DNA of 64,000 nucleotides, taken from positions 1-64,000 of the IMG/VR virus record IMGVR_UViG_3300027861_002706. One strand, written 5' to 3'. Made by a program: the position numbers and the translations under genes. Below, piece by piece: positions 1,585 to 22,566 of the stretch. Each line of letters starts with the position of its first letter. Positions within the stretch are counted from its first letter, which is position 1. The stretch comes from a virus. The notes under the pieces were generated by a model, which was given only the letters and a program-made list of their open reading frames with translations, did not search any database and had not been told where the DNA came from.

Positions 1585-1729
1585 TTATTTGACCTAGTTC
1601 TTCTTGAGGTATATGTAGTAGGTGACTAGCCTCCTTAGTCCCATGCTCATAGCATAACACAAGAATATATCTCTGATATGCTGTTAATTTTGACAGTAGT
1701 CTTGATTTAGGTTCTACTATTATATCTAT
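1550..1729 (-). CDS. Unannotated 59-aa sigma-70 region-4-like helix-turn-helix protein (non-canonical start or frameshift product)
   Basis: Read by hand: IDIIVEPKSRLLSKLTAYQRYILVLCYEHGTKEASHLLHIPQEELGQIIKNLSADLAHH-TAA. It fills the only large apparent gap. No upstream ATG/GTG/TTG; an ATA overlaps the upstream TAG. Confidence 0.55.
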   Translation of the reverse strand: MDIIVEPKSRLLSKLTAYQRYILVLCYEHGTKEASHLLHIPQEELGQIIKNLSADLAHH

Positions 1730-2814
1730 GATATGATTTCTTCCAGTATCTTTTCAGGATTATGTGCTTTTCTTAGTTCTATTTTTGATTGGTCAGAGAT
1801 GTCTTTGTTCATTGCATAGTCAATTGAATCTTTAAGAGATAGCTGATTTGGGGATGCCCACCAGCTATCACTAGATGAATTACCATCAAAGACAGGAATC
1901 ATAGTATGATCATATATCTGCATGTAGCTTCCTATATCGCTACTCGATGTGTTATGAGTATGTGTGATTGGAACAGTTCCACATAGTGCAGATTGTATGA
2001 CTGTTTGATTTATTCCAGATGTTCTGCTGATATTAATCGAAGTAGAGCACGCGTTATACACTTGTGCTAATTCTTCATCCGCTAATGGGTTAGATAGAAG
2101 AACTATCCTAGGCCCATCCTTACTATTAGATCTCTGTCTGACTTGACTAATCATTTGAATGATAGCAGGATCATCTGCAGTGTTCATAGTATTCTTATAT
2201 GTTCTTAAGATTATGGTTAAATCATTTTGGGTATACTGCGAGCATAATACTTCAAGGACTTCTATTATGCTTGTGGCATCTGATTGTTTTCCCTGGATAA
2301 GAACAGCAGGTTTTCTATCTTCTATCCTAATACCATTTTCCCGGACAGTAACATTCGCAATATCTGCTTCACCTGAAATTTTGCCAAAGATATCTATATC
2401 TATTGGCTCATTAATGATAGCAACATCGCATTCAACGTTTGCTCTAATCGCTGAGGCATAGTCCTCTTCGGAAGTCACTAGAACTTTATCCATCATAGAA
2501 CATTTGCTTACCCATTCTTTTGGAATAGCTGATCCTTTGCCCCATGATATCCATCCTATATTCTTTGCTCCTTCATGTAAGGTCCAGAATTCTGGCGATT
2601 TCATATTAATACATACATCTGGATTTTCTAGTTTAGATTCACATGCTGTTTTAACATCATCGAGAAGTTCTGTTTGAATCATTATACATACAGGGTCATG
2701 TTTAATATTAGTTATTTTAAACTCATGTGAATCTTTATTGTGTTTAAACAAAGCCCTACATCTGGAACTGATAGAATTGGGAGAGTTTATATCTCCAGCA
2801 AGATGTATCTTCAA
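1726..2814 (-). CDS. Degenerate GT-B (GT4-like) glycosyltransferase
   Basis: GT4-like layout (DKVLVTSEED, NEPIDIDIF, LADEELAQVYNACS, SALCGTVPI), but the EGFGxxxxE motif is replaced by SGINQTVIQ. TTG start overlaps the upstream TGA. Confidence 0.65.
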   Translation of the reverse strand: MKIHLAGDINSPNSISSRCRALFKHNKDSHEFKITNIKHDPVCIMIQTELLDDVKTACESKLENPDVCINMKSPEFWTLHEGAKNIGWISWGKGSAIPKEWVSKCSMMDKVLVTSEEDYASAIRANVECDVAIINEPIDIDIFGKISGEADIANVTVRENGIRIEDRKPAVLIQGKQSDATSIIEVLEVLCSQYTQNDLTIILRTYKNTMNTADDPAIIQMISQVRQRSNSKDGPRIVLLSNPLADEELAQVYNACSTSINISRTSGINQTVIQSALCGTVPITHTHNTSSSDIGSYMQIYDHTMIPVFDGNSSSDSWWASPNQLSLKDSIDYAMNKDISDQSKIELRKAHNPEKILEEIIS

Positions 2815-4169
2815 ACTGAAACTCCAATCATTTTTCTTGGTTTACTTACTACCTGCTGTATGAGTTCATGATGCTGCGTGGCTAATAGGTCGTGATCAAA
2901 TCTAGATAGCATATCTATTCTTCCATTCGAAGACAGGGTTTTGTAGAGTTCTTTATTTTTATAAAGACTATAGATTTGTTTTATAGCATGATTAATGTCT
3001 ATGAATCCTCTGTCTATTGAGCTTATGGGCTCTGGATACAGCTCACAATCTACTGAGAGACCGCCCTTCTTTGATATCTCAGGTTGAGCAGTGTAGTCAG
3101 TGTATACGACAGGTAGACCGCAAGCCTGAGCTTCAATCAGAGGTATCCCGAAGCCCTCTCCTCCAGATAAGGAAACAAACAAGTCAAACATATTATAGAG
3201 GTCTGACATTTCAGATGTTTTTAATCCGCTATCTTGAGTAAGTTTACTAGTAAATATTACTGTGTTTCCAAGCCCCCACATGTCTCTATGCAGATTAAAG
3301 TCCCAGCCTATATTTGCTTGGTTATATGCATGCATCCATAGTCGTAAGTCTTCGATTGGTTCACCTGGAGATACGTCTGTAGATTTACAGTACTTACATT
3401 CAGTAGGTATACTGGCAATACTTCTCTTCTGTCGGTTATATATTCCTCTAGTGACTCTATCACATGAATTACAGTTTATATAATTGCCGGTTTTAAGATA
3501 GTAAATGGTCTCAAAAAGATTCCATGGATTCTTTCGAGTTTGATCTTTACCTACCCAGCCAATGATAAAGCTATTAAGTATATCTGGATTTACTGCTTCT
3601 CTCAGTTTTTGTTTCTTATCTTCTGCATATGGATGGAAGATATTATTATCTACTCCGTGGTAGATCATTGCTGGCTTAACTCCAGTAAGATCCTCTACGG
3701 CATCTGCTCCGAACTCACTGGATACTATTGATAGTTCGGCAGCGTTAAGAGTTTTCTCATATCTCAATGGAGTAGGTGTACCATCTATCTCAAGGTATTG
3801 AATATACTTATAGCCTAATTGATTTCTGAGGAAAGACATATGCTCTACCATATATACGTCAGCTAAAGTCCACACTATGTCTGGCTTGAGCTGATTACAT
3901 AATGCCGGGAAGGATTGTGCCCCCCATTTGTCTTGCTCTAGAGGCTTTCGATTACCTTGTGGATCAAAGTTTGTGTTTGTAGGAATTATTTTCCAAGGGA
4001 CTGACTCTATCTCTTTCATTTTGAACCAGCCCTGCTGTACAATCTCGTACTTACCTGTACGCAATAGACGAGTCCATACTTCTCTTATCTGAGAGCCAAA
4101 AGAAGTATGATTGTCAGCGGCGTAGCCACAGATAAGAATCTTTGTTTTGTCCGACTGTTCAGTTTCCAT
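2811..4169 (-). CDS. GT4-family glycosyltransferase with inserted Cys4 zinc ribbon
   Basis: IYHGVDNNIF, YNMFDLFVSLSGGEGFGIPLIEAQACGLPVV; insertion CNSC-x21-CKYC. Confidence 0.88.
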   Translation of the reverse strand: METEQSDKTKILICGYAADNHTSFGSQIREVWTRLLRTGKYEIVQQGWFKMKEIESVPWKIIPTNTNFDPQGNRKPLEQDKWGAQSFPALCNQLKPDIVWTLADVYMVEHMSFLRNQLGYKYIQYLEIDGTPTPLRYEKTLNAAELSIVSSEFGADAVEDLTGVKPAMIYHGVDNNIFHPYAEDKKQKLREAVNPDILNSFIIGWVGKDQTRKNPWNLFETIYYLKTGNYINCNSCDRVTRGIYNRQKRSIASIPTECKYCKSTDVSPGEPIEDLRLWMHAYNQANIGWDFNLHRDMWGLGNTVIFTSKLTQDSGLKTSEMSDLYNMFDLFVSLSGGEGFGIPLIEAQACGLPVVYTDYTAQPEISKKGGLSVDCELYPEPISSIDRGFIDINHAIKQIYSLYKNKELYKTLSSNGRIDMLSRFDHDLLATQHHELIQQVVSKPRKMIGVSV

Positions 4170-4986
4170 TTAATTCCCTTTTAGCAGAGTTTATCCAGGA
4201 CTCAGGTAAGTCCTTTAACATGAATTTCTGATCACATATCCGATTAAACGGACAAGCAGAGCATTTAGATCTTGAAGTATTTGGCAGGTAAACGCCTTTT
4301 CTAATCAAATCTACTGTATTTGTACATGTCTGCAATGATATGTCAAGCATATATCTAGAAACCTTAGTAGAAATTCTAGGTATTCCAAAGTAAGAGAGGT
4401 ATCTGTGACCGTAAGGATATTCTATCCTATGAGATATGATGTTGTCTATGAAATATCTAGCTAATCCAACATCTATGTGGTCATAATTTTGTATATTCTT
4501 ATATGTTTTATCGTCTATCAACGAAGTAAATTCGTAAGATCTTTTTGATCTGTTGCCATCATTTCTTATGGTCATTAGATCTATCTTGCTCGAGACATGT
4601 AGATCTTCTCCTAGCTCAACAGTGAAAGGATAATTGAACATCGCTATGATGTCTTTACTTATGTCTATGTACTCTATAATAGTATTTATGACGATAAGAC
4701 CTTGAGCGTAGAGTTCGATAAGTCTCTGTGAATCTCTGCAGTTATTTGACAAAGAAGTAAATTTCTCTTTGAATGTTTCAGCTGCATCTGCTATAAAGGA
4801 CCTAGGATGCTTCCTTCTAAGACCCCACTCATTTGCTATGATGAAGAAGGCATCATGCATGGCTTCAACATAAATTTCATTGGCGTTAATTGGTTTGTAG
4901 GGTAAGTTTAGCTCATGTTTATATCTGTAATAAAGCCCGCAAAAAAGATAGTTTTTAATTTGTTCAGAACTGTAAATGTTACTCAT
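4159..4986 (-). CDS. PD-(D/E)XK/RecB-Cas4-like fold protein, probably nuclease-inactive
   Basis: N-terminal NYLFCGLYY and C-terminal CSACPFNRIC (Fe-S staple pattern) with SSKIDLM. The expected D/E-x-K is not evident (YEFTS). Confidence 0.6.
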   Translation of the reverse strand: MSNIYSSEQIKNYLFCGLYYRYKHELNLPYKPINANEIYVEAMHDAFFIIANEWGLRRKHPRSFIADAAETFKEKFTSLSNNCRDSQRLIELYAQGLIVINTIIEYIDISKDIIAMFNYPFTVELGEDLHVSSKIDLMTIRNDGNRSKRSYEFTSLIDDKTYKNIQNYDHIDVGLARYFIDNIISHRIEYPYGHRYLSYFGIPRISTKVSRYMLDISLQTCTNTVDLIRKGVYLPNTSRSKCSACPFNRICDQKFMLKDLPESWINSAKRELNGN

Positions 4987-5003
4987 GTTAGTTTGGAATT
5001 CGA

Positions 5004-7499
5004 GTGGAAAATGATTTAGATGTAATTAAGTCCAAGATCATGCCTTTCTTGTCTCAATATCTTGAAGATATGAAGATAGAAATAGTTACTAGAGGTCATG
5101 ATCAATGGATAAGCTGCCTTAACCCAGAACATGAAGACTCAGATCCTTCCATGCATTTTGTACCGGAGAGTGATAGCACTATATTAAAGTGCTTCTCCTG
5201 TAACGCTAGTTATAATATATTTCATGCTGCAAATATACTTGAAGATAAACCTTTATCGGGAAAAGAATTTATACAAGATAATTTATATTATCTTTGTGAT
5301 AAGTACAGTGTAAAACATGACTTACTATCTATCTCAGAGGATGAACTGCGAGAAATTTCTATCAGAAAGGCCTACAGGGATGCTGCAAAGGTTTTTAGAA
5401 ATCAGTGTATCAAAGATAAAGATTTTTCTTTTGTCAACAGTAGGAATCGGGGTATTTCTGACACTATTGCTGCTAGCATGGGTATTGGAACTGTTTACTG
5501 GGATCCTTTCAAAGAAGAGATGAAGGAACTTGGTCATAACCAGAAATGGTTAGAGTCGATCGGGATCAGCTCAGATTTTATAGGTCTAGACTACCTGACT
5601 TTTATATTAAAAGATGAAAAGGGAGACTGCATAGGACTGGCACGAAGATGGATGCGTTGGAAAAAGGAAGACCATAAGGCAAGCAGGGAATCTGGATCAC
5701 ATTATATACCTAAGTATAAGAACAGCGACAGTACAAAGAATCCATTGTATAAAAAGAATCAATTCCTATACGGACTGTATAGAGCGCTAGAAGCTAAGAC
5801 AAGTAAGATAGATCTTGTTGAAGGATACACTGATGCCATTGCAATGATGCAAGCGGGTCATAGCCACGTTGCTGCAGTCTGTGGTACTGCAATAACAAAA
5901 GATCAAGTTCAGTTACTTAAGGACCTCGGCTTTACAAATATAAATATAACGTTAGACGGCGATGAAGCTGGCATACATAATATGGATAAGTATTTAGAAA
6001 GCTTTAGGTCTACGCCAGGCATAAGAGTTACTATAACTATATTAGAATTTGATGACTCTGTAGAACCAGAAGATAGAGATCCATGCTACTGGATACAGAT
6101 GCATGGTCTTGCTGAATACTTCGAGATAAAAAGAAAGACTGCATTCGATTGGCAACTAGAAAAACTTATATCTAAAAAAGTTGCCTATCCTGATATTGCA
6201 AAGCAGATGATTGACTATATACTGGCTGAATCTTCGGCTATTGACAGAGAATCATTAATAAAAGAGCTGAGCAGTAGAACAGGGATAAGCCGTGACGCCA
6301 TTCAGAAAGAAATTAATAGTAGAACTAACAACAGCGTCAATCAGATTATTGATGAATGTAATAAAAGAATCTCTAGAGCACAAACAGCAGAACAAAAACT
6401 TGAGTTCCTTAGGGCGGCAGTCAGCAAGGCAGAAACCTCAGTAAGACCTAAAGGAGTAGAAGACCTTTCCGTAAGGGCTAGTTATTCTACGATTGAAAAT
6501 ATAACTAACAAGTTTGTACAAGACAATCCTGGCTTGACTGGATGGGATTGCGGCATAGAAGGTATCAATAAATATTTCGGTGGGATACCTAAGTCAAAAG
6601 AGTTGATAGCATTTGGCGGAAATCCTAATACAGGTAAGTCTACTCTCCTATATAATATATGCTATGGGCTATTGAATAACGAGCCTAATGGATTGACCTG
6701 TGCATTTTGGTCACTAGATGATCCTATCGAAAGTGTAACAGCTAAGATGTTAGCTATAAAAACTGGGTTTAGTATAAATCAATGTAAATATGCTAGTAAT
6801 AATATACCTGCGAGAGGTATCAGCACGAGAGATACTCCTGAGTATAAAGAAGCCATTGAATGGATCCATAACGTCACTAGGTCTGGTAAATTCATACCTC
6901 AGTCTACCGGGATGGGTGAAACGATAGAGTCATGTGAAAAATGGCTCCGATCTATACGAGAAGAAACCGGCAATGACATCGTCCTATTCATAGATAGCTT
7001 CCATAATATATCTGGAGGAGGAGATGATGAGAGGATCAAAGCCAAGCGTGCAGCAGAATGGATGCAAAAGATATCCGATACATTAGATCTGACTATCGTA
7101 TGTACTATGGAATGCAATAAGCAGGGAATGAACTCTAAGCGCCCTCATATAGAACATCTTGGTGAGTCAGGCAAGATGGCATTCTCATTCAAATTAGTCG
7201 GAATGGTGTATAACGACTTGCATGAAAACAGAGAGAGAGCCAAGAGCTATTGGACAGATTCTAATGGAAAAGATAGGCCTATTATAGAAGTTTCTTATGA
7301 GAAGAATAAGATTACCTCCTATAAAGGAACACAATCATTTAAGTTTAAAGACGAGTGTGCAACACTAGAGGAAATCAGCTATGCTCAGATCGAAGAGATG
7401 GTAAAAGATAGACATGAAAAGAAGATCGAAAAACAAACTGGCATACCTAATGTCAAACTCTATGAAGGTAATTTAGATGGCTTCAGTAGCACTGGATAG
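5004..7499 (+). CDS. Fused DnaG-type primase / DnaB-like helicase
   Basis: Zn-binding CLNPEH...CFSC, Toprim LVEGYTDA and LDGDEAG, Walker A GGNPNTGKS, Walker B LFIDSFH. The start may be ATG 5040. Confidence 0.9.
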   Translation: MENDLDVIKSKIMPFLSQYLEDMKIEIVTRGHDQWISCLNPEHEDSDPSMHFVPESDSTILKCFSCNASYNIFHAANILEDKPLSGKEFIQDNLYYLCDKYSVKHDLLSISEDELREISIRKAYRDAAKVFRNQCIKDKDFSFVNSRNRGISDTIAASMGIGTVYWDPFKEEMKELGHNQKWLESIGISSDFIGLDYLTFILKDEKGDCIGLARRWMRWKKEDHKASRESGSHYIPKYKNSDSTKNPLYKKNQFLYGLYRALEAKTSKIDLVEGYTDAIAMMQAGHSHVAAVCGTAITKDQVQLLKDLGFTNINITLDGDEAGIHNMDKYLESFRSTPGIRVTITILEFDDSVEPEDRDPCYWIQMHGLAEYFEIKRKTAFDWQLEKLISKKVAYPDIAKQMIDYILAESSAIDRESLIKELSSRTGISRDAIQKEINSRTNNSVNQIIDECNKRISRAQTAEQKLEFLRAAVSKAETSVRPKGVEDLSVRASYSTIENITNKFVQDNPGLTGWDCGIEGINKYFGGIPKSKELIAFGGNPNTGKSTLLYNICYGLLNNEPNGLTCAFWSLDDPIESVTAKMLAIKTGFSINQCKYASNNIPARGISTRDTPEYKEAIEWIHNVTRSGKFIPQSTGMGETIESCEKWLRSIREETGNDIVLFIDSFHNISGGGDDERIKAKRAAEWMQKISDTLDLTIVCTMECNKQGMNSKRPHIEHLGESGKMAFSFKLVGMVYNDLHENRERAKSYWTDSNGKDRPIIEVSYEKNKITSYKGTQSFKFKDECATLEEISYAQIEEMVKDRHEKKIEKQTGIPNVKLYEGNLDGFSSTG

Positions 7500-8436
7500 A
7501 ATACATAATTTATTAGTAAATCCTTACGTTAAAGAGACCAGACGAGGTGGAGCAAGATACCCCAGTAGTTCTAGCACTACATATATAAATCAATATGGAG
7601 AAGATACAGTTGTAGGAACCTGCCTACGACGTCAATGGTACGCTTCTCAGGACTACGAAGAGACTGGTGAGAGGAATGCCGAGGGTACGATGAAGGCCCT
7701 TGCCGGTAACCTCTGGTCTCAGTTCCTAGTTGATAGAATCAAGGAGGCTGGATTCTGGTATGGGGACGAAACGAGCTTCTATAATGCGGAGCTAAATGTC
7801 TCCGGTAGAGTAGATGTCATAGTGGCCGAGGAGGGCACCAGACACCCCGTAGGAGTGGAGATCAAGACGGTTGGGACCTTTGTATCAAAGGGGGTCATCA
7901 AGCCCACAGCAGCCTACCCACTGGCTCCTAAGGAAGACCATGTTCTACAGACAATGATTTATCTATATCATTATAGGAATGCAATCAAGAAATGGGTATT
8001 ACTATATATGGATAGAAATACCATGGAGATGGCTGAGCATGTAGTAAGACTAGAAGAAGAAGACGGCTATCACTACCCTGTAATTTCCAATGAGATGGGC
8101 GTAAAAGAATGGAAACATATCAGGGTAGAAGATATCATTAGACGCTGGCAAGAATTAGAGATTCATATCAAAAATAAGACTTTACCAGAGAGAGACTATG
8201 AGCTACAGTATGCTAACTCTAAGATAGCTGCTATGTACAATACTGGCCGGCTCACTAAAACTGATTCTAAAAGAATCCAAAGAAGAGTAGAAGCTGGTGA
8301 AGTAGATGATAACAAGCCACCTCTACTGGAGAAAGGAGATTGGCAATGTCGATTTTGCCCGTTTCTTCAGGAATGTTATCGAGAAGAGATCGCACCAGAT
8401 CAGATCTCGAACGAACAGATGGATGCAACACTATGA
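7477..8436 (+). CDS. Cas4/RecB-like PD-(D/E)XK exonuclease
   Basis: GTCLRRQWY, SGRVDVI, VEIKT, QTMIY and CRFCPFLQEC (four-Cys Fe-S pattern). Confidence 0.85.
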   Translation: MASVALDRIHNLLVNPYVKETRRGGARYPSSSSTTYINQYGEDTVVGTCLRRQWYASQDYEETGERNAEGTMKALAGNLWSQFLVDRIKEAGFWYGDETSFYNAELNVSGRVDVIVAEEGTRHPVGVEIKTVGTFVSKGVIKPTAAYPLAPKEDHVLQTMIYLYHYRNAIKKWVLLYMDRNTMEMAEHVVRLEEEDGYHYPVISNEMGVKEWKHIRVEDIIRRWQELEIHIKNKTLPERDYELQYANSKIAAMYNTGRLTKTDSKRIQRRVEAGEVDDNKPPLLEKGDWQCRFCPFLQECYREEIAPDQISNEQMDATL

Positions 8437-8693
8437 GTAAGAAGAAACTTCGTACGGTTTATACTAAAGAACATGTGATTGAATCATATCGCGAGGGCTT
8501 AGTAGATGGCATGTCTAAGGGAGAAAGAGTATCTAGCGATATACTTAATCTATATGAAAGGATAAACACTATAAGAAAAGCACTAAAAGATTATGGATAT
8601 ATCCTACCAAACAATCAGCTGTCCTCTAAAGGTGAATCAATGCCAATGATCATTGCTATATTCGATGCTATTGATCTGAAAGAAGAAGAATAA
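8433..8693 (+). CDS. Hypothetical protein
   Basis: ATGA overlap with the nuclease stop gives MSKKKLRT..., a better start than 8340. Confidence 0.7.
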   Translation: MSKKKLRTVYTKEHVIESYREGLVDGMSKGERVSSDILNLYERINTIRKALKDYGYILPNNQLSSKGESMPMIIAIFDAIDLKEEE

Positions 8694-8694
8694 C

Positions 8695-9702
8695 ATGGAT
8701 AAAGTAGCAATAGTCACTGGTATTACAGGCCAGGATGGATCTTACCTAGCCGAACTTCTTATCTCTAAGGGATACACAGTAGTAGGAACAGTAAGAGCTA
8801 CAGTAACATCAAAGGATGAGAAGTTTAAGAACCTAAATAATATAATTGGTTCTCAAAAGCTCTTTTTAGAGTGCTGTGATATCTGTGACTATGGTGCTAT
8901 TGATAGAATAGTACGTAATTATAGTCCAGTAGAGATATATAATTTAGCTGCACAATCAGATGTAGGAGAATCCTTTAAGACTCCATTGGCTACATGTTCC
9001 ATGAATATGCTTGGCGTAGCAAACCTGCTAGAAGTTATACGGAATAATAATCCCGACATAAGAATGTATCAAGCATCTACATCAGAGATGTTTGGAGATA
9101 ATACTACCACTCCTCAAAATGAAGATACATTGTTCTCTCCAGTTTCTCCGTATGGAGTTGCTAAGTTAGCTGCTCACTACATGGTCAAAAGCTATCGTAG
9201 TTCATATGATATGTTTGCTGCTAACGGAATACTCTTTAATCATGAGAGCCCTCGTAGAGGTGAGAACTTTGTGACTAGAAAGATAACGAAAGCTGCTGCA
9301 AGGATAAAGCTAGGTAAGCAAGATAAGTTAGAGCTAGGCAACCTTGATGCGTTTAGGGACTGGGGATTCGCTGGAGATTATGTAAAAGCAATGTGGTTAA
9401 TACTTCAACAGGATGTACCAGATGACTTCGTAATAGCAAGCGGAGAAACTCATAGCGTGCGAGAACTTCTGGAGTTAGTGTTTAGACATGCTGATCTTAG
9501 TATAGTTGAACATGTGAATACAACAAGTGATTTGTATAGGCCAACAGAAGTACCGAAACTTTGGGGCGATCCCAGTAAAGCAGAAGAGCAATTAGGATGG
9601 AAAAGAGATATGGGATTTGAAGATCTTATTATACATATGTACGAAGAAGATCTTGTGAGAGAGTCGGGAAAAAATACTCAGTACAGTGATATTCTAATCT
9701 AG
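8695..9702 (+). CDS. gmd: GDP-mannose 4,6-dehydratase
   Basis: GITGQDGSYLAE, YNLAAQSDV, YQASTSEMFG, SPYGVAKL, NHESPRRGENFVTRKI, RDWGFAGDYV. Confidence 0.97.
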   Translation: MDKVAIVTGITGQDGSYLAELLISKGYTVVGTVRATVTSKDEKFKNLNNIIGSQKLFLECCDICDYGAIDRIVRNYSPVEIYNLAAQSDVGESFKTPLATCSMNMLGVANLLEVIRNNNPDIRMYQASTSEMFGDNTTTPQNEDTLFSPVSPYGVAKLAAHYMVKSYRSSYDMFAANGILFNHESPRRGENFVTRKITKAAARIKLGKQDKLELGNLDAFRDWGFAGDYVKAMWLILQQDVPDDFVIASGETHSVRELLELVFRHADLSIVEHVNTTSDLYRPTEVPKLWGDPSKAEEQLGWKRDMGFEDLIIHMYEEDLVRESGKNTQYSDILI

Positions 9703-13035: not shown

Positions 13036-13760
13036 ATCCTAAAGTATCTATAATAATACCCTGCTACAATACAGAAAAGTATGTGGAGCAATGTGTATAT
13101 TCTGCTTTAGACCAAGACTATAAAAACATAGAGGTTATTGCTGTCGATAATGAAAGCACTGATACAACAAGGGATCTTTTGCTTGAAATACAAAAGAAGA
13201 GAATCGAACTAATAGTAGATGACGCACCAAATCTTCATAAGTACTCTTGGGATGAAGCAAGAAATGTAGCTTTAGAAAGATGTACTGGAGACTATATAAC
13301 TTTTATTTGCTCTGATGACTTCTTAGAAAAAGAATATATATCTACTTACGTGAAGTTTTTAAACGCCAATCCAGAGTATTTGGCTATGCAGAGCCCCATA
13401 AGGGGAGTACAAGATGGACAACCTACAAGCATTCAATCTCATTCCTATGGTTCATTAGAAAATTTTAAGCAGCAATGCCTACAGGGATGTCCAGTAAATA
13501 CACCTACCGTAATTTATAGTAAAAAACTGTATAATGATGGACTGTTAAAAACTTTCCCAGAAAAATACTACGGAGCAGCTGACTACGACTTATATTGCAG
13601 ACTAGCCGATAATGAAGTAATGATACATTTACTTCCCATGTGGATCGGCTATAACTATAGGTGGCATCCTGAGCAGTGCACGTGGGGAATGCATAAAGAA
13701 CCCGTTAGTTATGATCAGTTAATTCAGAATTACTGGAGAGATAAATGGACACAGGTTTAA
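13032..13760 (+). CDS. GT2-family glycosyltransferase
   Basis: VSIIIPCYN, VDNESTD, ARNVAL, ICSDDFL, AADYDLYCRL. Confidence 0.92.
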   Translation: MNPKVSIIIPCYNTEKYVEQCVYSALDQDYKNIEVIAVDNESTDTTRDLLLEIQKKRIELIVDDAPNLHKYSWDEARNVALERCTGDYITFICSDDFLEKEYISTYVKFLNANPEYLAMQSPIRGVQDGQPTSIQSHSYGSLENFKQQCLQGCPVNTPTVIYSKKLYNDGLLKTFPEKYYGAADYDLYCRLADNEVMIHLLPMWIGYNYRWHPEQCTWGMHKEPVSYDQLIQNYWRDKWTQV

Positions 13761-14353
13761 CCCCATCTGATTTAAGAGCATTTGAACTAAAAGTCTTTGA
13801 CTTATTTAAAAACAAGAAGATTAAATCCCCCATACATTTAAGAGGGGGAAATGAAGAGCAGCTAATAGAAATATTTAAGGGTATTAATCCGGAAGACTAT
13901 CTCTTTCTTACATGGGCTAGTCACCTGGAGTGTCTTTTAAAAGGTGTACCGGAAGAAGAAATACTAGAAGCCATACTTGCAAACAAATCCATATGTTTGT
14001 CATTTAAAGAATACAATGTACTGTCTTCTGCAATTGTTGGAGGCAATGCCCCTATAGCTACAGGAATTGCCCTGGGTTTAAAGCTGAACAGTAAAGAAAA
14101 CGGGGTGTGGTGCTTTGTTGGCGACATGTCTTTCTATACTGGCGCAGTACAGGAGAGCATTAGATACTCTGAAGTACATGATCTCCCTATAACTTTTGTA
14201 ATAGCAGACAATAAAAAGAGCGTAGAAACCCCCACGTCTGCTGTCTGGGGGACAGGCATAAAAGACTTGGCCGATAAATCAAATAAGTGTATCTACTATG
14301 AGTACGAAAATTACTTTTTGCACGCTGGAATTGGAGAGAAGGTACTCTTTTGA
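13745..14353 (+). CDS. Thiamine-pyrophosphate-dependent enzyme, short E1-alpha-like subunit
   Basis: IHLRGGNEE, SAIVGGNAPIATGIALG and a TPP-binding GDMSFYTG...FVIADN motif. Confidence 0.85.
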   Translation: MDTGLTPSDLRAFELKVFDLFKNKKIKSPIHLRGGNEEQLIEIFKGINPEDYLFLTWASHLECLLKGVPEEEILEAILANKSICLSFKEYNVLSSAIVGGNAPIATGIALGLKLNSKENGVWCFVGDMSFYTGAVQESIRYSEVHDLPITFVIADNKKSVETPTSAVWGTGIKDLADKSNKCIYYEYENYFLHAGIGEKVLF

Positions 14354-14877
14354 ATTACGCAGAAGAGCTTAAAAAAGCAATGCTTTATTTGTCAGAACAG
14401 CCAGACACTATATTCATTGGACAAAGCATGGAATATGGTGGAATTGCAATGGCAAGTTCATTTGACACGATACCAGCTGACAAGAAGATGGAGATGCCTG
14501 TAGCAGAAAATCTACAGATGGGTATATCTACCGGCTTAGCTCTAACAGGACATGTACCTGTATCAGTTTATCCAAGATGGAACTTTTTATTGCTAGCAGT
14601 AGACCAATTGGTAAACCACTTAGATAAATTGTCTGAAATGACTAGAGGAAAATATAATCCAAAAGTAATCATACGCGTTGCAGTTGGAGTCAAGTCACCA
14701 ATTGACCCGCAAGAACAACATGTAGGTGATTTTACTGAAGGGTTTAAAAGTATACTAAGAAATATAAATGTTGTTAAATTAAACAACGCAGAAGATATAA
14801 TGCGAGAGTATAAGAAAGCATACACTAGTGAAGATGGCGTATCTACCGTATTAGTAGAAGAGCATCAGTTTGCCTAG
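14350..14877 (+). CDS. TPP enzyme E1-beta-like subunit (pyrimidine-binding domain only)
   Basis: FIGQSM, EMPVAENLQMGISTGLAL, AVDQLVNH, VIIRV; only 175 aa, lacking the C-terminal domain. Confidence 0.85.
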   Translation: MNYAEELKKAMLYLSEQPDTIFIGQSMEYGGIAMASSFDTIPADKKMEMPVAENLQMGISTGLALTGHVPVSVYPRWNFLLLAVDQLVNHLDKLSEMTRGKYNPKVIIRVAVGVKSPIDPQEQHVGDFTEGFKSILRNINVVKLNNAEDIMREYKKAYTSEDGVSTVLVEEHQFA

Positions 14878-15706
14878 GGTTTTAATCACTGGAATAACAG
14901 GGTTCTTAGGTAAAGAACTAAAGGAGTACCTGTTTTCCTATGAAATCACAGGTATATCCAGATCAAGTGAGATCTCGATTGATCTTACAGACAGATCACA
15001 GGTAGATCTGTTCTTTAAATGCAATAGCTTCTTTGACTACGTCATACATACTTCTGTTGCCGGTGGTAAAAGAGGTGTTTACGACGACTACGATGTATTG
15101 TTGAAAAATCTATTAATGTTTGACAATATAATATCTAATAAAAGACACTTCGGTAAAATGTTTAATTTTTGTTCTGGCGCAGCATTCGGAAGATCAAACA
15201 ATGTAGTTCAGGAAAAAGAAGAAAACATTGGAAAGTATTGGCCTACAGATTACTACGGACTATCAAAAAATATAATAGCAAGAAAAATTAAGCAATTAAA
15301 TTACGTATATAATCTTAGATTATTTGGATGCTTTGGAAGACATGAGGGGTTCTCCAGATTCATCGGGTCTTATATCAGACAGATTAAATATGGTGAACGA
15401 CCAGTAATTCATCAAGACAAGCAGATGGATTTCATATCTGCACAAGATGTGTCAAAAATTATAGAATACTATATAGAAAATCAAGATCAAGATCTACCTA
15501 GAGACATTAACCTTGTCTACCCAGAAAAATTAAGGATACTAGACATAGCAAAAAAGATTGAAAGAATAACTGGTTCAGGTATACTATCTTTAATCCAAAA
15601 CCCTGGAATGGGAAACACATATACTGGTGATGGATCCAAGCTTCAGTTGCTAGGAATAGAATTAGATGGTTTAACAAAAGGAATTGAAGATTATGTCATC
15701 AAGTAA
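14870..15706 (+). CDS. NAD(P)-dependent epimerase/reductase (extended SDR)
   Basis: ITGITGFLG Rossmann motif, YGLSK (YxxxK), LRLFGCFG. Confidence 0.88.
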   Translation: MPRVLITGITGFLGKELKEYLFSYEITGISRSSEISIDLTDRSQVDLFFKCNSFFDYVIHTSVAGGKRGVYDDYDVLLKNLLMFDNIISNKRHFGKMFNFCSGAAFGRSNNVVQEKEENIGKYWPTDYYGLSKNIIARKIKQLNYVYNLRLFGCFGRHEGFSRFIGSYIRQIKYGERPVIHQDKQMDFISAQDVSKIIEYYIENQDQDLPRDINLVYPEKLRILDIAKKIERITGSGILSLIQNPGMGNTYTGDGSKLQLLGIELDGLTKGIEDYVIK

Positions 15707-17021
15707 AGACGATGTCTTAAAGGCTGTTAGAGAATTTTTCCGTGGTAAAAGTTCTAGCTGGGACAAAGAGAAAGACTGGGTAAAGTATTCAGGGCCGTCC
15801 TTTGACGAAGAAGAATATGTAGCAGCAGTTGAATCACTGTTATCAGAATGGCTCATATTTGGCAAATATGCTGCTGAGTTTGAGCGAGTTTTTCCAAAGT
15901 ACTTAGGTAAAAAGTCAGGGATCCTAACTAACTCTGGTAGCTCAGCCAATCTGTTAATGATGACAGCAGCTAAATCAAATAACTTGTATGGATTTGAGCC
16001 CGGAACAAAGATACTTACACCTGTAGTATGTTTTCCAACTACAATTAATCCGATTCTACAAAACGGGTTTGAACCCGTTTTTGTAGATGTAGAACTGCCT
16101 AGCTTAAATCTCAACTTAGATCATGTAGAAAGAAAGCTTGCTGAGTATCCTGACATAAAAGGTATTACTTTTGCCCATGTCTTAGGTAACCCTCCAGATA
16201 TGGAAAGACTTATGAGTATTGTAAAAGAACATAATCTAGTCTTTTTTGAAGATGCCTGCGACGCCCTGGGCTCATACTATGACGGCAATAAGCTTGGATC
16301 ATATGGACATATGTCTAGCTGTTCATTTTTCCCTGCCCATCATATGAGTATGGGGGAGGGGGGCCTTGTAGCCACCGACAATGCAAGAGCAAGGAAGGTT
16401 CTAACCTCCACACGCGATTGGGGAAGAGCCTGCTATTGCAATACTGCTAAGCCTGGAGACGTGACCTGCGAGACTGCCTGTGGTGACAGATTTAAGAACT
16501 GGCTGCCCGGTATGCCAGAGGTAACATATGATCATAGATATGTATTTGACGAAATTGGATACAATTTAAAGCCATTAGACCTGCAGGCAGCCATGGGATT
16601 AAAGCAATTAGACAAGTTGGAAAAGCTAGATGCTGCAAGAAGAAGCAACTATAAAAAATTATATAAAATATTCTCTAAATACGAAGAGTATTTTTATTTA
16701 CCAGAAGCAACTAAAAAGTCTGATCCATGTTGGTTTGGATTCTCTATAATTGTAAAAGACAACTCACCTTACAAAAGAGAAGATATAGTTAGACATCTGG
16801 AAGCAAACAGGATACAGACTAGATCCTATTTTAGTGGAAACATCTTAGCTCACCCAGGGTACAATCATATGGCCAAAGGACGTGACCTAGATAAGGAATT
16901 CCCTGTTGCAAAAAAGGTTACAGCAGATTGTTTTTTCCTTGGCACATTCATAGGGCTTACCGAAGAAAAGATAGACTACATAGAGGAAAAGCTAGATAGT
17001 CTACTCAAGGGAAAACAATGA
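15693..17021 (+). CDS. rfbH: NDP-4-keto-6-deoxyglucose 3-dehydrase (E1, PMP/[2Fe-2S]; RfbH/DdhC-like)
   Basis: NSGSSANLL, EDACDALGS, SFFPAHHMSMGEGG (His at the Schiff-base Lys position), RDWGRACYC...CGDRF, YDHRYVFDEIGYNLKPLDLQAA. Confidence 0.92.
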   Translation: MSSSKDDVLKAVREFFRGKSSSWDKEKDWVKYSGPSFDEEEYVAAVESLLSEWLIFGKYAAEFERVFPKYLGKKSGILTNSGSSANLLMMTAAKSNNLYGFEPGTKILTPVVCFPTTINPILQNGFEPVFVDVELPSLNLNLDHVERKLAEYPDIKGITFAHVLGNPPDMERLMSIVKEHNLVFFEDACDALGSYYDGNKLGSYGHMSSCSFFPAHHMSMGEGGLVATDNARARKVLTSTRDWGRACYCNTAKPGDVTCETACGDRFKNWLPGMPEVTYDHRYVFDEIGYNLKPLDLQAAMGLKQLDKLEKLDAARRSNYKKLYKIFSKYEEYFYLPEATKKSDPCWFGFSIIVKDNSPYKREDIVRHLEANRIQTRSYFSGNILAHPGYNHMAKGRDLDKEFPVAKKVTADCFFLGTFIGLTEEKIDYIEEKLDSLLKGKQ

Positions 17022-17965
17022 AAATAGTTTATGTAACAGGGTGTTTGGGTTTTATAGGATCCCACATAACGGCCAGATACTTAGATGAAGGATGGATGGT
17101 CTATGGTATAGATAAGTGTACTTACGCATCAAATACTGACCTTCTAGATAAGTTTAGGCAGTTTCCTAACTTTAGGTTTGAAAAAACTGATATAAAAGAT
17201 ATAAAACATTTATATGACTGCGACTACATAATAAATACTGCTGCAGAATCACATGTGGAAAACAGTATTATTAATAGCGATGAATTTATTAATAGTAATG
17301 TGCTTGGAGTAAAAAACTTACTTGATTTAATTAGAAATAAGGCAAAGAACTGTAATCCTAGACCAATAATGCTACACATTAGTACGGATGAGGTCTATGG
17401 AGACATCGAAAGCGGCAACCATACAGAAGAAAATTTGCTACGCCCTAGCAACCCATACTCGGCTGTTAAAGCTGCTGCAGACATGCTAGTGCTAGCATGG
17501 GCACGCACATATGGCATTGAATATATAATATTACGTCCTACTAATAACTATGGCATTGGACAATACCCAGAAAAGTTAATACCTTTATCAGTAAAAAATC
17601 TAATAAGAAATAAAAAGATCAGATTACATGATGAAGGAAGACCTATACGTAATTGGTTGCATGTAGAAGATACAACTGATGCCGTAATGAAAGTAATTGA
17701 ATCTGGCCAAGTAAATAATATATATAATATTGCAGGAGGATTTGAACAAACAAATGCCGATACAGTAAAAAAGGTTATATCTGCATATCATAATACTGAA
17801 GACTGGCAAGCCTATGTAGATTTCAATTATTCGCGTAAGGGACAAGACGTAAGATACGCCCTAGACGACACAAAAATAAAAGCTTTAGGGTGGGAACCTA
17901 AAAGGGTATTCGACGAAGAAATAAATCTAATTGTAAAGCACTACAAGGAAAATTTTATATGGTAG
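17018..17965 (+). CDS. rfbB: dTDP-glucose 4,6-dehydratase-like
   Basis: TGCLGFIG, AAESHV, STDEVYG, YSAVK, NNYGIGQYPEKLIP, RKGQDVRYALD. Confidence 0.9.
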   Translation: MKIVYVTGCLGFIGSHITARYLDEGWMVYGIDKCTYASNTDLLDKFRQFPNFRFEKTDIKDIKHLYDCDYIINTAAESHVENSIINSDEFINSNVLGVKNLLDLIRNKAKNCNPRPIMLHISTDEVYGDIESGNHTEENLLRPSNPYSAVKAAADMLVLAWARTYGIEYIILRPTNNYGIGQYPEKLIPLSVKNLIRNKKIRLHDEGRPIRNWLHVEDTTDAVMKVIESGQVNNIYNIAGGFEQTNADTVKKVISAYHNTEDWQAYVDFNYSRKGQDVRYALDDTKIKALGWEPKRVFDEEINLIVKHYKENFIW

Positions 17966-18813
17966 ATAGTAAAATGAAAACAGCATGCTTAATCTACGCA
18001 ACGAAAAGTTTCCACGAAAGGTTAGCTCATTGTGCACTTAGAAGTTTTAAAAAATGGCACCCAACTATCCCTGTAATAGGGGTTAAGACTGATCACGTTA
18101 CTCCTGATATAGAAATGTCAGAGTTGGACGAAGAGATGCTTATGGTTATAGGTATACGGAAATATGCTCTTGCAAGTAGAGCTATGAAAGAGAATAACCT
18201 AGATAAGATTATAATTCTAGGGTCTGATACTATTACCTGTGGAGTACTAGATGAATTTATAGACAATAACTCAGCAGACATCCTAGCAACTTTGGATTAC
18301 CCATACCCTATATCTACCGCCGTATTTAATGGACAAGGGTATGAACATTTAAATGCTGATGTTGTATGTTTTAACTCTACGGAAGCTATTGATAGTATTG
18401 TTGAAAGAAGCCCTGCGCACGGTCATTGGTGTGAGCAAGGTGGTTTAAATGAAGTGTACTATACATCTGGATTTAAATGTGAAACCGTAGACTCCCCATA
18501 TAATGAATCTAATGTTGCATATAATGTTAGATCCAAAGGTAATACAGTAGCATCCCCTATGACTCAATGGGAATACACTAATAAGTTTATAGTTAGAGAT
18601 TCTAAGTTACTCATACCTACTCCCACCTTACAAACTAGATTGAAGCATTTGAAAGTATGGCATTATTGTGAAGGGTTCGGATGTTTGGATTACACATCCC
18701 AGAAAGAACGTATGGATTATTGGTTTACTAAAGGGTTTAACGAAGAAACTAAAAAATTCTTTAAAGAAGAGTGTGATTGCGGGGATTTCTTTGATGGAGA
18801 TTTTACACTATGA
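17959..18813 (+). CDS. Putative GT-A fold glycosyltransferase (GT8/GT77-like)
   Basis: ALRSFKKWHP, IIILGSDTI (degenerate DxD), LNADVVCF, EQGGLN; operon context. Confidence 0.55.
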   Translation: MVDSKMKTACLIYATKSFHERLAHCALRSFKKWHPTIPVIGVKTDHVTPDIEMSELDEEMLMVIGIRKYALASRAMKENNLDKIIILGSDTITCGVLDEFIDNNSADILATLDYPYPISTAVFNGQGYEHLNADVVCFNSTEAIDSIVERSPAHGHWCEQGGLNEVYYTSGFKCETVDSPYNESNVAYNVRSKGNTVASPMTQWEYTNKFIVRDSKLLIPTPTLQTRLKHLKVWHYCEGFGCLDYTSQKERMDYWFTKGFNEETKKFFKEECDCGDFFDGDFTL

Positions 18814-19709
18814 AAGTAGTAGTTACAGGAGGCTCGGGATTTCTAGGAACTAGGCTTCAATTAAAAAACCCAGATTGGATTTATATTTCATCAAAAGACG
18901 CAGACTTAACCAATTATAATGAGTGTATAAACCTTTTCAACAAGTACACTCCCGACGCAATCATACACTTGGCTGCTAAAGTAGGAGGTATCAAGGAGAA
19001 TGCTACGAAACCTGCCGAATTCTATGATATTAATATACAGGTAAATACTAATGTTTTAAAAGCCTCATACAAGTGTGGCATTAAACGAGTTTTATCCTGT
19101 TTGAGTACTTGCACCTTCCCTGATGCAGTTTCGTCCTACCCTTTCTCAGAAGATAATATATTCGATGGACCTCCCGCTATTACTAATAGGGCTTACGGAT
19201 TCACAAAAAGGGCTTTGTACATTCAAACTCTAGCATATAGAGAGCAGTATGGAGTTAATTATTCCTGCTTCTGCCCTTCTAACCTTTACGGACCTAATGA
19301 TAATTTTGATTTGGAGTCTTCCCACTTCGTACCTGCTCTTATAAGGAAATTAGAAGAATCTGAAGATGGAGATAGTTTAGAGTTATGGGGAACTGGAAAT
19401 CCAAAGAGACAGCAACTTTATGTCGATGACTTAGCAGAGATCATCCCCATACTATTGGAAAAACATAATTCGGACATACCTCTTATCGTTGCACCGAATG
19501 AAAACTTTAGTATAAAGGAGATGGCAGATATCAGTAGATCTATAATAGGTCGAGAGATAACTTTCACATTCAATGGAAGCCTTGATGGACAGTTTAGAAA
19601 GGATGGGTCTAATGAAAAGTTTAAAGAGCTCGTCCCAGACTTCGAATTTACTTCTTTTAAGAAAGGATTAAAGCAAACTTATGAGTGGTTTAAAGAAAGA
19701 ACAAGATGA
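18810..19709 (+). CDS. fcl: GDP-L-fucose synthase
   Basis: TGGSGFLG, HLAAKVGGI, LSTC, YGFTK, PSNLYGPNDNF, SHFVPALIRK, WGTGNPKRQ. Confidence 0.93.
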   Translation: MKVVVTGGSGFLGTRLQLKNPDWIYISSKDADLTNYNECINLFNKYTPDAIIHLAAKVGGIKENATKPAEFYDINIQVNTNVLKASYKCGIKRVLSCLSTCTFPDAVSSYPFSEDNIFDGPPAITNRAYGFTKRALYIQTLAYREQYGVNYSCFCPSNLYGPNDNFDLESSHFVPALIRKLEESEDGDSLELWGTGNPKRQQLYVDDLAEIIPILLEKHNSDIPLIVAPNENFSIKEMADISRSIIGREITFTFNGSLDGQFRKDGSNEKFKELVPDFEFTSFKKGLKQTYEWFKERTR

Positions 19710-20340
19710 TTTTAATTGGGAGATGTACACCACCCTATACTATGAGAGAGAGATGGTAGAGGGACTCCAAAGACGGGATTCGCTCGACATGTTGGTAAAG
19801 AGTTCTTATGTTGATCGAGCCTTAGAGCCTAAAGTGGTATACTCGGATAACCTGCACTCTAATTGGAAAGAGTTATATAATCAGATATGTACGCTAGGGG
19901 TTAGCTCTGTCTTTGAATGTGGTACTGGATGTGCCCATCATTTAATTAACATATGCAAGCTTTGTCCTGAAATAATGATTAATGGTTGTGATTATTCCCA
20001 ATCTCAAATAGACTTAGGGTACAAGTATTTCTCCTTAATAGAGTATTCCTTTGCTAAAAGACTTAAGATAGTAGATATGACTACTCAAGAAGCTACAAAA
20101 GGACTACCTACCTCTGAATTTGTATATACGCAAGCTGTAACTATGCATCTAAGTTGGGATAGAGCTAAAAAGTTCTTAACTAATATGGGAAAGTTATCTA
20201 GTAAGTATGTCTATTTGATCGAAAATATTTATGCGCATGATTACTCCGCACTATTGAAAGAAGCTTTACCTGAGTTTGAAATAGCATCCGCTAATTCTGA
20301 TTATATTATAGGAGCAATCTTATTAAAGAGGAAAAGATGA
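19681..20340 (+). CDS. Class I SAM-dependent methyltransferase
   Basis: VFECGTGCAHHL motif I, GCDYSQSQI, VYTQAVTMH. Confidence 0.8.
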   Translation: MSGLKKEQDDFNWEMYTTLYYEREMVEGLQRRDSLDMLVKSSYVDRALEPKVVYSDNLHSNWKELYNQICTLGVSSVFECGTGCAHHLINICKLCPEIMINGCDYSQSQIDLGYKYFSLIEYSFAKRLKIVDMTTQEATKGLPTSEFVYTQAVTMHLSWDRAKKFLTNMGKLSSKYVYLIENIYAHDYSALLKEALPEFEIASANSDYIIGAILLKRKR

Positions 20341-20598: not shown

Positions 20599-20599
20599 T

Positions 20600-22562: not shown

Positions 22563-22566
22563 GTTA

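Follow-up and report, generated by a model that had tools for sequence, protein, structure and literature searches.

We analyzed a stretch of viral DNA of 64,000 nucleotides (the window), the first 64 kb of the IMG/VR record IMGVR_UViG_3300027861_002706, which is a linear sequence of 117,601 bp with a completeness estimate of 91% (CheckV, whole IMG/VR record). The left end of the window, up to 20.3 kb, carries a set of glycan genes in which a first-pass annotation had recognized two nucleoside diphosphate (NDP)-sugar routes, about seven glycosyltransferase (GT)-like genes and a methyltransferase, and had seen a dedicated, phage-borne pathway on a genuine phage contig, all of which was borne out. 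The enzymes named at that stage (Gmd, Fcl, an RmlB-like dehydratase, RfbH, the alpha and beta chains of a thiamine diphosphate (ThDP) enzyme, a short-chain dehydrogenase/reductase (SDR), two GT4 enzymes, two CgeB-like enzymes and a GT2 enzyme) were all recovered in place using Pfam, NCBIfam and PDB comparisons (Table 1).

The genes between 8695 and 20340 form one overlapping operon of 14 genes that follows a primase-helicase gene. From the primase-helicase (5004) up to 20340 there are no gaps between genes: neighbouring genes either abut or overlap by 4 to 31 nt, in agreement with the translational coupling noted earlier. GT4a and U362 stand apart from this operon, at 1726-4169. A scan for promoters and terminators gave sites no more frequently than in shuffled sequence. 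As described below, the locus has a conserved core of GT4a, U362, Gmd and U180 together with a cassette that is exchanged in the manner of a serotype locus. We consider the proposed enzymology and the cassette, taken alone, to be probable; the whole system, including virion proteins as the acceptor of the glycan, is put forward tentatively.

Table 1. Positions of the glycan genes, the cassette and other features (window positions, or positions in the whole record where indicated)
Feature	Position	Strand	Evidence and remarks
U362, degenerate GT-B (GT4-like) paralogue	1726-2814	-	hhalign vs GT4a family
GT4a, GT-B glycosyltransferase	2811-4169	-	Pfam Glycos_transf_1 3.8e-12; conserved flank
GDP-mannose 4,6-dehydratase (Gmd)	8695-9702	+	Pfam GDP_Man_Dehyd 1.9e-121, 406 bits; conserved flank
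U180, 180 aa	9703-10245	+	Two CxxC pairs; left anchor of island; 7 homologues, no family match
GT4b glycosyltransferase (GT-B)	10215-11216	+	Pfam Glycos_transf_1 1.6e-14, Glyco_transf_4 2.1e-7
CgeB-like glycosyltransferase 1	11213-12142	+	Pfam Glyco_trans_1_2 5.1e-19; viral-cassette homologues 41-49% identity
CgeB-like glycosyltransferase 2	12139-13035	+	Pfam Glyco_trans_1_2 3.7e-13; viral-cassette homologues 40-51% identity
GT2 (GT-A) glycosyltransferase	13032-13760	+	Pfam Glycos_transf_2 1.9e-27
ThDP enzyme alpha (PP domain, E1 type, 202 aa)	13745-14353	+	Pfam E1_dh 6.5e-14; TIGR03182 72 bits
ThDP enzyme beta (Pyr domain, 175 aa)	14350-14877	+	Pfam Transket_pyr 8.4e-5; pyruvate dehydrogenase (PDH) E1 beta NF006667 3e-11
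Extended SDR	14870-15706	+	Pfam Epimerase 1.8e-23; adjoins dehydrase in viral cassettes, 30-46% identity
E1/RfbH-type NDP-4-keto-6-deoxyhexose 3-dehydrase, dependent on pyridoxamine 5'-phosphate (PMP) and Fe-S	15684-17021	+	NF011936 449.8 bits, above curated cut-off 423
NDP-glucose 4,6-dehydratase, dTDP type	17018-17965	+	TIGR01181 306 bits (cut-off 365); CDP type only 79 bits
U284, phage-specific GT-A-like protein	17959-18813	+	Atlas structure: Nucleotid_trans/GT8 clusters, template modelling (TM) score 0.65-0.72
GDP-L-fucose synthase (GMER/Fcl type)	18810-19709	+	Human GFS, PDB 4b8w, 252 bits, E 7e-74
Class I S-adenosylmethionine (SAM)-dependent methyltransferase	19681-20340	+	Atlas feature matches 0.96-0.97; ten of the ten best are methyltransferase clusters
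Replaceable glycan cassette (hypervariable island), GT4b to methyltransferase	10232-20349		~10.1 kb
PD-(D/E)XK nuclease	4159-4986		Pfam; outside glycan system
Cas4-like nuclease, 319 aa	7477-8436	+	C-terminal Cys cluster WQCRFCPF..C, typical of Cas4/RecB-family Fe-S nucleases
Major head protein (MCP)	96667-98115		Whole record
Portal	100741-102915		Whole record
Large terminase (TerL)	104812-106851		Whole record
Ribonucleotide reductase	114825-116798		Whole record

Two predicted sugar-nucleotide routes

Homology shows that the phage would convert host GDP-mannose and NDP-glucose, the latter probably drawn as dTDP-glucose, to a GDP-6-deoxyhexose and an NDP-4-keto-3,6-dideoxyhexose. For the first of these, the gene set of the GDP-L-fucose pathway (Gmd family and GMER family) is present. 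Gmd scored 385.8 bits against TIGR01472, under the equivalog cut-off of 415, and Fcl scored 196 bits against NF047922, below its cut-off of 500. Because the family scores fall below the cut-offs, the product of Gmd and the GMER-type synthase could be GDP-L-fucose or a closely related 6-deoxyhexose.

The second route would begin with the 4,6-dehydratase, which scores as the dTDP type; a CDP-glucose 4,6-dehydratase was not matched. The 3-dehydrase carries the complete E1/RfbH/DdhC signature, i.e., a family hidden Markov model score above the cut-off, the His and the [2Fe-2S] Cys. It aligns with the solved Yersinia E1 (3BCX) over 411 residues with 325 bits, contains the motif FFPAHH with a His at the H220 position replacing the pyridoxal 5'-phosphate (PLP) lysine, and has Cys at the E1 Fe-S positions. 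Since the similarity to E1, the His and the Fe-S Cys are all kept, we assign the protein as a redox-dependent C3-deoxygenase rather than a ColD-type enzyme. The ColD type, which would act with Gmd and Fcl towards GDP-colitose, was excluded by length, by the Fe-S cysteines and by the score of 325 bits to E1 compared with 167 to ColD. Together, the 4,6-dehydratase and the E1-type dehydrase would yield the NDP-4-keto-3,6-dideoxyhexose, with electrons supplied by a host reductase.

The adjoining ThDP enzyme is split into two chains, of which alpha contains a ThDP-Mg motif, GDM..(x26)..DN, and beta the Pyr-domain Glu within a PVAEN motif. A scan of IMG/VR with the 3-dehydrase returned 47 viral loci, including some near-duplicates, and in 39 of the 47 a ThDP enzyme was located within 10 kb of the dehydrase (18 transketolase-type split, 11 acetolactate synthase (ALS)-type single chain, 7 E1-type split and 3 with two types). 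The order GT2, ThDP enzyme, SDR, dehydrase and 4,6-dehydratase is kept in the viral loci L011/L026, L045, L007, L002, L005 and L012-L014, and in the closest cassettes the slot from GT2 to SDR is filled by any of three unrelated ThDP architectures. A ThDP carboligase and a ketoreductase are therefore encoded with the 3-dehydrase, as in a yersiniose-type pathway. An ALS-type flavoprotein like YerE is not found here, where the enzyme is of the split PDH-E1 type, and occurs only in sister cassettes. In 4-keto sugars, both PDH-like AviB1/AviB2 and ALS-like YerE install an acetyl branch at C4 that later becomes hydroxyethyl by reduction (PMC4753412).

The ThDP linkage points to C4-branched 3,6-dideoxyhexoses as the predicted products. 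Judging from the order of the genes, from published work and from the conserved ThDP slot, the split alpha/beta enzyme would add a two-carbon acyl branch at C4, and the SDR would serve as a ketoreductase on either the 4-keto group or the acyl branch, giving a yersiniose-like C-branched dideoxyhexose. A search of the literature available to us found no paper tying C-branched dideoxy sugars to phages. A variation on the slot was observed in L005 (6469-9190) and also in L013, L014 and L036, where it holds a 595-aa ALS/YerE-like enzyme followed by a homologue of the PanB-like ketopantoate hydroxymethyltransferases (330 bits); this partner is unusual in a sugar pathway and may perform C-hydroxymethylation.

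Glycosyltransferases and the exchanged cassette

Five GTs, GT4a included, are supported by Pfam, and the total rises to six or seven soluble enzymes when the GT-A-like U284 and the degenerate U362 are counted among the GT-like genes. The glutamates E338..E346 of GT4a are invariant across its family. The profile of this family gave its best PDB match with B736L of chlorovirus NY-2A (3oy2, E 8e-11), with Gtf1 structures also among the matches (E ~5e-6), and GT4a-like genes head the cassettes of other viral loci. The start of U362 overlaps the end of GT4a by 4 nt. U362 has 13 full-length homologues with 45-84% identity and no Pfam or PHROG match. Residues 235-353 of U362 align with the C-terminal GT-B domain of the GT4a family (hhalign Prob 94.5%, E 7.7e-8), and the EX7E glutamates, invariant in the GT4a family, are replaced by (S/T)..Q in every U362 homologue. 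The earlier description as a degenerate GT4 was thus substantiated, and by this conservation U362 is a predicted pseudo-glycosyltransferase rather than a decaying gene. The AlphaFold2 model of U362 had a mean predicted local distance difference test score of 49, too poor for a fold search, and prediction of a GT4a-U362 complex returned a score of 0.00, which counts neither for nor against binding.

U284 had been suggested to be GT-A-like, and its structural matches in the Atlas agree. It falls in virus-only protein clusters there, and homologues hold the same cassette position in L011, L026, L002 and L007; no sequence match was found in Pfam, PHROG or the PDB, and tblastn against phages was empty. 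The last gene of the operon (U219, open reading frame (ORF) 19681-20340) gave a weak match to Pfam Methyltransf_25 (E 0.084) and nothing significant with phmmer against the PDB. Its assignment as a methyltransferase was upheld by Atlas feature matches of up to 0.97 to class I SAM methyltransferases and by gene order, as homologues in L067 and L068 are placed FCL-MTase-GMD. This placement between Fcl and Gmd makes a role in methylating a sugar of the GDP branch probable. U180, a lineage-specific protein, is probably a zinc ribbon, given its two CxxC pairs. For the ORFs without a family, Pfam searches at E up to 10 yielded only weak hints.

Variation of the locus was followed by comparing the contigs of three independent DNA runs from seawater metagenomes (X2, X3 and X9) over 4000-23999. 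In X2, the flanks had a depth of ~34.6 and the region 10.2-17 kb a depth of ~14.4, and one contig joined 10232 to 20349 with a depth of 17.8; the depths of the two forms (14.4 + 17.8) sum to roughly that of the flanks. In X9, with flanks at 20-30, the depth over 11.3-20 kb was ~0-2, loose ends lay at 10241 and 20352, and a 10.4-kb contig matched 10095-11143 and diverged afterwards. The edges of the island correspond to the stop codon of U180 (10245) and that of the methyltransferase (20340), the latter abutting the stop of the first minus-strand gene. GT4a, U362, Gmd and U180 belong to the constant backbone, and the read depth of Gmd equals that of the flanks. The depth drops, the skip joint and the loose ends show GT and deoxysugar genes varying within a syntenic genome, and the genes from GT4b to the methyltransferase make up a cassette whose anchors are fixed and whose content is exchanged or lost. 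New here are anchors resolved to a few bases and co-existing cassette alleles in single samples. It had escaped the first-pass annotation that most of the operon is replaceable at the population level, and that comparable marine myophage clusters had already been described.

Within gmd, the segments 8801-8938 and 9246-9375 are replaced in other samples by diverged segments of the same length, and one X2 contig joins 20339 back to 9199, giving the order Fcl-MTase-Gmd seen in L067 and L068. Both observations point to recombination among the cassettes of distinct phages. In the marine metatranscriptome X19, contigs with 90-99% identity were found on 4006-9698 and 20673-21670 and none on 10-20 kb, which could be explained by a different cassette allele; these contigs may be carried-over DNA and are no proof of expression. 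A second variable stretch, 22676-23999, lies in the C-terminal part of a 2025-aa ORF (22567-28644, minus strand) and looks like a hypervariable fibre tip, with depth drops, joints and loose ends in X2 and X3 and a near-identical sequence in X9. Since X9 keeps 22.7-24 kb and carries a different cassette, the cassette and the putative fibre tip appear to reassort independently.

A chimeric join of a bacterial lipopolysaccharide (LPS) locus to a phage contig, raised in the first-pass annotation as the finding that could undo its proposal, has some features in its favour. The cluster is near the left end of a linear contig, the depth of the island is unlike that of its flanks, and the region is covered by no other IMG/VR contig. 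Against such a join, contigs from three independent metagenomes span the passage from U180 into GT4b (X2 10161-11001, X3 9924-10780 and X9 10095-11143), and at either edge the breaks marked by the skip joint and loose ends coincide exactly with the ends of genes. Gmd, GT4a and U362 are part of the backbone of constant depth, and the cluster has phage genes to its left and to its right. Among relatives of the cassette genes, the closest are viral, with 61-73% identity compared with 40-42% for bacterial ones, a difference that is only suggestive because the scan of bacterial genomes was pattern-limited (3 loci). As the left junction is bridged in three runs and phage genes occur on both sides, we regard a chimeric assembly as most improbable.

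Judged by the MCP, portal, TerL and baseplate genes on the same contig, the record is that of a genuine tailed phage. The window also encodes a baseplate wedge protein and several 'virion structural' proteins, and to the right of 20.3 kb every gene is on the minus strand. No cultured phage has a TerL with more than 33% identity to this one, the best match being that of Moorella phage MTATph1, followed by the Bacillus 0305phi8-36 group. The operon had no nucleotide match in 50,697 phage records (megablast), and no IMG/VR relatives covering the left 22 kb were found via the primase-helicase, the 296-aa neighbour, the last ORF of the contig or the U362 profile. IMG/VR relatives with TerL identities of 82-100% exist, none of which extends to the glycan cluster. 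Several independent IMG/VR contigs with 98-100% identical TerL seem to stop ~10-11 kb past TerL, near the ~117.6 kb end of this contig, which hints at a physical genome end or an assembly-breaking region. The stretch 6500-10500 is present in runs from at least 17 seawater or marine studies, and we therefore consider this a widespread marine phage. Its lifestyle looks lytic; no integrase was noticed among the annotated ORFs, among which no systematic integrase search was made. DNA polymerases of families A and B went undetected in the 117.6-kb contig, despite the primase-helicase, the nucleases and the ribonucleotide reductase. Such a gene either lies in the missing ~9% of the genome or is too diverged for detection, and for this reason the missing part may hold replication and nucleotide-metabolism genes.

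Two neighbouring genes, 7477-8436 and 4159-4986, were corrected to nucleases, neither of them a glycan gene; the former sits between the primase-helicase and Gmd and gave only a weak PNK3P hint in Pfam. Directly beside the island, a 92-aa ORF (20600-20878, minus strand) has an N-terminal hydrophobic segment ending in a lipobox-like LITGC and may be the distal gene of the late operon, coding for a lipoprotein or an o-spanin.

Acceptor of the glycan

In the proposed mechanism, the entire assembly of the glycan would be cytoplasmic and phage-borne. The six soluble GTs and the methyltransferase would produce a short methylated hetero-oligosaccharide, GT4a, perhaps with its pseudo-GT partner, would act as the acceptor-specific priming transferase, and the cassette enzymes would build a variable outer part strain by strain ('viral serotypes'). 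The acceptor, the least certain step, would be one or more virion proteins.

A hydrophobicity screen detected no hydrophobic segment in any ORF of 1-20.3 kb and no polytopic membrane protein or flippase-like protein in the whole contig, which agrees with the earlier view that machinery for a lipid carrier or export is missing. Likewise, and newly observed here, none of 975 ORFs across the 47 dehydrase-bearing viral loci encodes a large polytopic protein, nor does the cluster of cyanophage S-H68. By comparison, the two bacterial loci recovered with this dehydrase, a small control, each contain ORFs with 10-12 hydrophobic segments. The flippase, polymerase, ABC permease and priming phosphoglycosyltransferase of a Wzx/Wzy- or ABC-type O-antigen system were not found here, and phage versions of such clusters consistently drop flippase, polymerase and priming transferase. 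We rank virion proteins first because the enzymes are fully soluble and export genes are absent across the phage versions, because the system is complex enough for a complete glycan rather than a side-branch, and because viral precedents exist and the island adjoins fibre-like genes. Stretches rich in S/T/P occur in the virion ORFs 45036-48494, 52286-54388 and 86091-89468, the last outside the window. This last ORF (minus strand, 1125 aa) encodes repeated Thr/Ser/Val-rich units of the ATTTSTSVTTS type and four hydrophobic segments, with DUF7187 as its only Pfam match; its product is a possible O-glycosylation substrate.

The same enzymes could instead remodel the host envelope, with phage GTs acting on undecaprenyl-linked O-unit, capsule or lipooligosaccharide intermediates and the host exporting the product. 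Such remodelling might block superinfection by competitors or stop progeny from re-adsorbing to the lysing cell, and cassette diversity would then track the O-antigen diversity of the host. Comparable islands of cyanomyophages and pelagimyophages are currently interpreted in this way (PMC1079782, PMC7029224, PMC12801897). The enzymes here are typical of O-antigen synthesis (RfbH above its curated cut-off, with Gmd, Fcl, GT2 and GT4), the G+C content of the island, 0.33-0.37, is lower than in the rest of the contig, as in O-antigen loci, O-antigen GTs need no transmembrane segment, and by gene order the operon would be expressed with early or middle replication genes. However, no priming phosphoglycosyltransferase, Wzx, Wzy or ABC transporter was found in the contig or the 47 viral loci, even though both bacterial controls were positive in the polytopic screen, and the phage looks lytic. 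In addition, host Wzx, Wzy and WaaL would have to accept a new six- or seven-sugar unit containing rare sugars; in O-antigen synthesis these proteins are usually selective. Altogether, we consider envelope remodelling somewhat unlikely.

The position of the operon, directly behind the primase-helicase and the Cas4-like nuclease and in the same transcription unit, suggests a further acceptor. Phage DNA carrying an oligosaccharide on a hydroxylated base could be protected from restriction or CRISPR, as known from T-even phages, RB69/DLP3 and the MT/5mYOX clusters. DNA glycans of up to three sugars and phage genes for NDP-sugars (e.g., UDP-arabinose) are documented in phages, and DNA-modifying GTs reportedly resemble enzymes of LPS and teichoic-acid synthesis. 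All known routes to glycosylated phage DNA start from a thymidylate-synthase homologue or from a C5-methyltransferase with 5mYOX/TET (10.1101/2023.12.21.572611; PMC13326640, for both the documented glycans and the routes). In contrast, the contig contains no thymidylate-synthase homologue (PF00303) for hydroxymethylcytosine (hmC), hydroxymethyluracil (hmU) or 5-hydroxycytosine (5hoC), no C5-cytosine methyltransferase (PF00145) and no TET/JBP dioxygenase (PF12851), so that the search for hmC/hmU synthesis genes proposed in the first-pass annotation gave none in this ~91% complete contig. A set of six or seven GTs and a methyltransferase is also more than any known DNA glycan would require. The missing ~9% of the genome could contain a precursor gene, as no DNA polymerase was found either, but DNA hypermodification appears distinctly improbable.

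Other acceptors can be envisaged, namely host proteins (flagellin, pilin or S-layer), a small molecule or a lipid, or the NDP-sugars might be metabolic sinks. All enzymes are soluble, the Pfam description of the CgeB-like family associates it with glycosylation of spore-coat proteins, and no feature ties the system to a particular acceptor. Nothing specific speaks in favour of these targets, however, and variation by cassette and a GT set of this size suggest a structure that is exposed and under selection, not a metabolic function; we therefore judge them unlikely. Of the three acceptors named in the first-pass annotation, DNA is thus the least supported, and sequence analysis alone does not discriminate between virion proteins and the host surface.

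Several points weigh against the proposed scheme with virion proteins as acceptor. Regarding its chemistry, the contig encodes no E3 reductase partner (an Fe-S flavoprotein; no Fer2 domain was found) and no ferredoxin. As there is no Fer2-type reductase and no nucleotidyltransferase in the contig, the host must supply the electron donor as well as the two NDP-hexose precursors; SpnQ is an example of an E1-type enzyme working with general cellular reductases. The ThDP-binding motif is non-canonical (GDM..DN compared with GDG..NN), and the NDP carrier, the SDR step and any stereochemistry for the branched sugar are putative. For the cassette, no independent contig was explicitly seen to bridge the right-hand junction at 20340 among the matches listed. 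Regarding the acceptor, nothing observed points to it directly, the operon is co-transcribed with replication genes and the late virion genes are on the other strand, and the published view for marine myophages is modification of the host O-chain (PMC7029224, PMC1079782). O-antigen GTs are also soluble or peripheral, and host undecaprenyl phosphate, Wzx, Wzy and WaaL could be borrowed. The dedicated pathway of the first-pass annotation stands, and its further claim of a branched, methylated glycan built directly on the acceptor without a lipid carrier is putative. The absences reported above are weaker evidence than they appear, because the contig is ~91% complete and no DNA polymerase was detected.

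A more detailed version of the virion-protein proposal, in which O-antigen-like glycans with C-branched 3,6-dideoxy sugars coat the virion, made without a lipid carrier by a conserved priming GT, its pseudo-GT and a swappable cassette, and in which the resulting serotypes reassort independently of the fibre tip, is rather doubtful in all its parts together. If virion proteins are indeed the acceptor, the locus would confer a serotype-like variation of the phage surface with a bearing on adsorption, grazing, particle stickiness and immune recognition. The locus represents a compact, fully soluble case of the 'LPS-like' gene puzzle in abundant marine lytic phages, and with the cassette anchors resolved to a few bases its alleles can be mined from metagenomes. 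The predicted C8 branched dideoxyhexose would provide a distinctive mass tag for glycoproteomics, LPS or nucleoside analysis of marine viral fractions, and the conserved pair of GT and pseudo-GT is a candidate for the acceptor-specific step.

Comparison with known systems

Bacterial O-antigen loci have the same enzyme families in a low-G+C cassette exchanged between conserved flanks, in the manner of galF-gnd, but no Wzx, Wzy, Wzm/Wzt or priming transferase is present here or in the 47 viral loci. GT4a and U362 resemble GtfA/GtfB, the O-glycosyltransferases of serine-rich-repeat adhesins, in that an active GT4-type GT-B enzyme is encoded beside a conserved GT-B paralogue without the catalytic motif; the similarity is generic to GT4, no search for a DUF1975-type domain was made, and the pairing is putative here.

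Chloroviruses PBCV-1/NY-2A and mimivirus possess their own Gmd/GMER-type enzymes, soluble GTs and methyltransferases, and use no host endoplasmic reticulum or lipid carriers. Virus-encoded glycosylation of virions is also described for mycobacteriophages (Che8/Corndog; phage cases cited in PMC12619734). Like these viruses, the phage encodes its own sugar enzymes, several soluble GTs and a methyltransferase, and the best solved relative of its GT4a is chlorovirus B736L. In contrast to them, it is known from genes alone, has a bacterial host, and shares with them only generic GT4 motifs in sequence.

The predicted second route follows the order of chemistry of the pathways to yersiniose and acyl-branched octoses (Yersinia DdhB/E1/E3/YerE/YerF, AviB1/AviB2 of avilamycin, and paulomycose), i.e., 4,6-dehydratase, E1-type 3-dehydrase, ThDP-dependent C4 acylation and ketoreduction (PMC4753412), and the E1 His and Fe-S Cys features of the yersiniose pathway are kept. 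It differs from that pathway in a dehydratase of the dTDP rather than the CDP type and in lacking an E3 reductase, and its product is predicted from the genes. Whereas YerE is an ALS-like flavoprotein, the enzyme here is a shortened split E1 alpha/beta pair of 202 + 175 aa, with ALS-like versions in sister viral cassettes.

The closest counterparts are the islands of marine T4-like cyanomyophages and pelagimyophages (P-SSM2, S-SCSM1/2R, S-H68 and the host-recognition cluster of pelagimyophages), in which lytic marine phages likewise group many GTs with NDP-sugar enzymes in large clusters. P-SSM2 has 24 'LPS' genes (PMC1079782), S-SCSM2R has 13 GTs (PMC12801897) and pelagimyophages have a hypervariable host-recognition cluster (PMC7029224). 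As here, these are hypervariable regions near fibre genes that lack export genes and whose acceptor was never shown (PMC1079782, PMC7029224, PMC12801897). In cultured cyanophage S-H68, an E1-like dehydrase with 38% identity lies in a 17-kb sugar/GT cluster beside tail-fibre and baseplate genes. In contrast to these islands, the backbone here is not T4-like (Tevenvirinae/Kyanoviridae), as reflected in the low TerL identity to cultured phages (<=33%). The genes form a compact, translationally coupled operon behind a primase-helicase and include a ThDP branching step, and the boundaries are resolved to a few bases with GT4a, U362 and Gmd outside the variable cassette. Phage sugar clusters of this kind have been known since 2005, and the locus sharpens the old question of their acceptor without answering it. 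What it adds is an unrelated, non-T4 backbone, a dehydrase tightly linked to three interchangeable ThDP enzymes, and the division between a conserved core with its predicted pseudo-GT and a swappable cassette.

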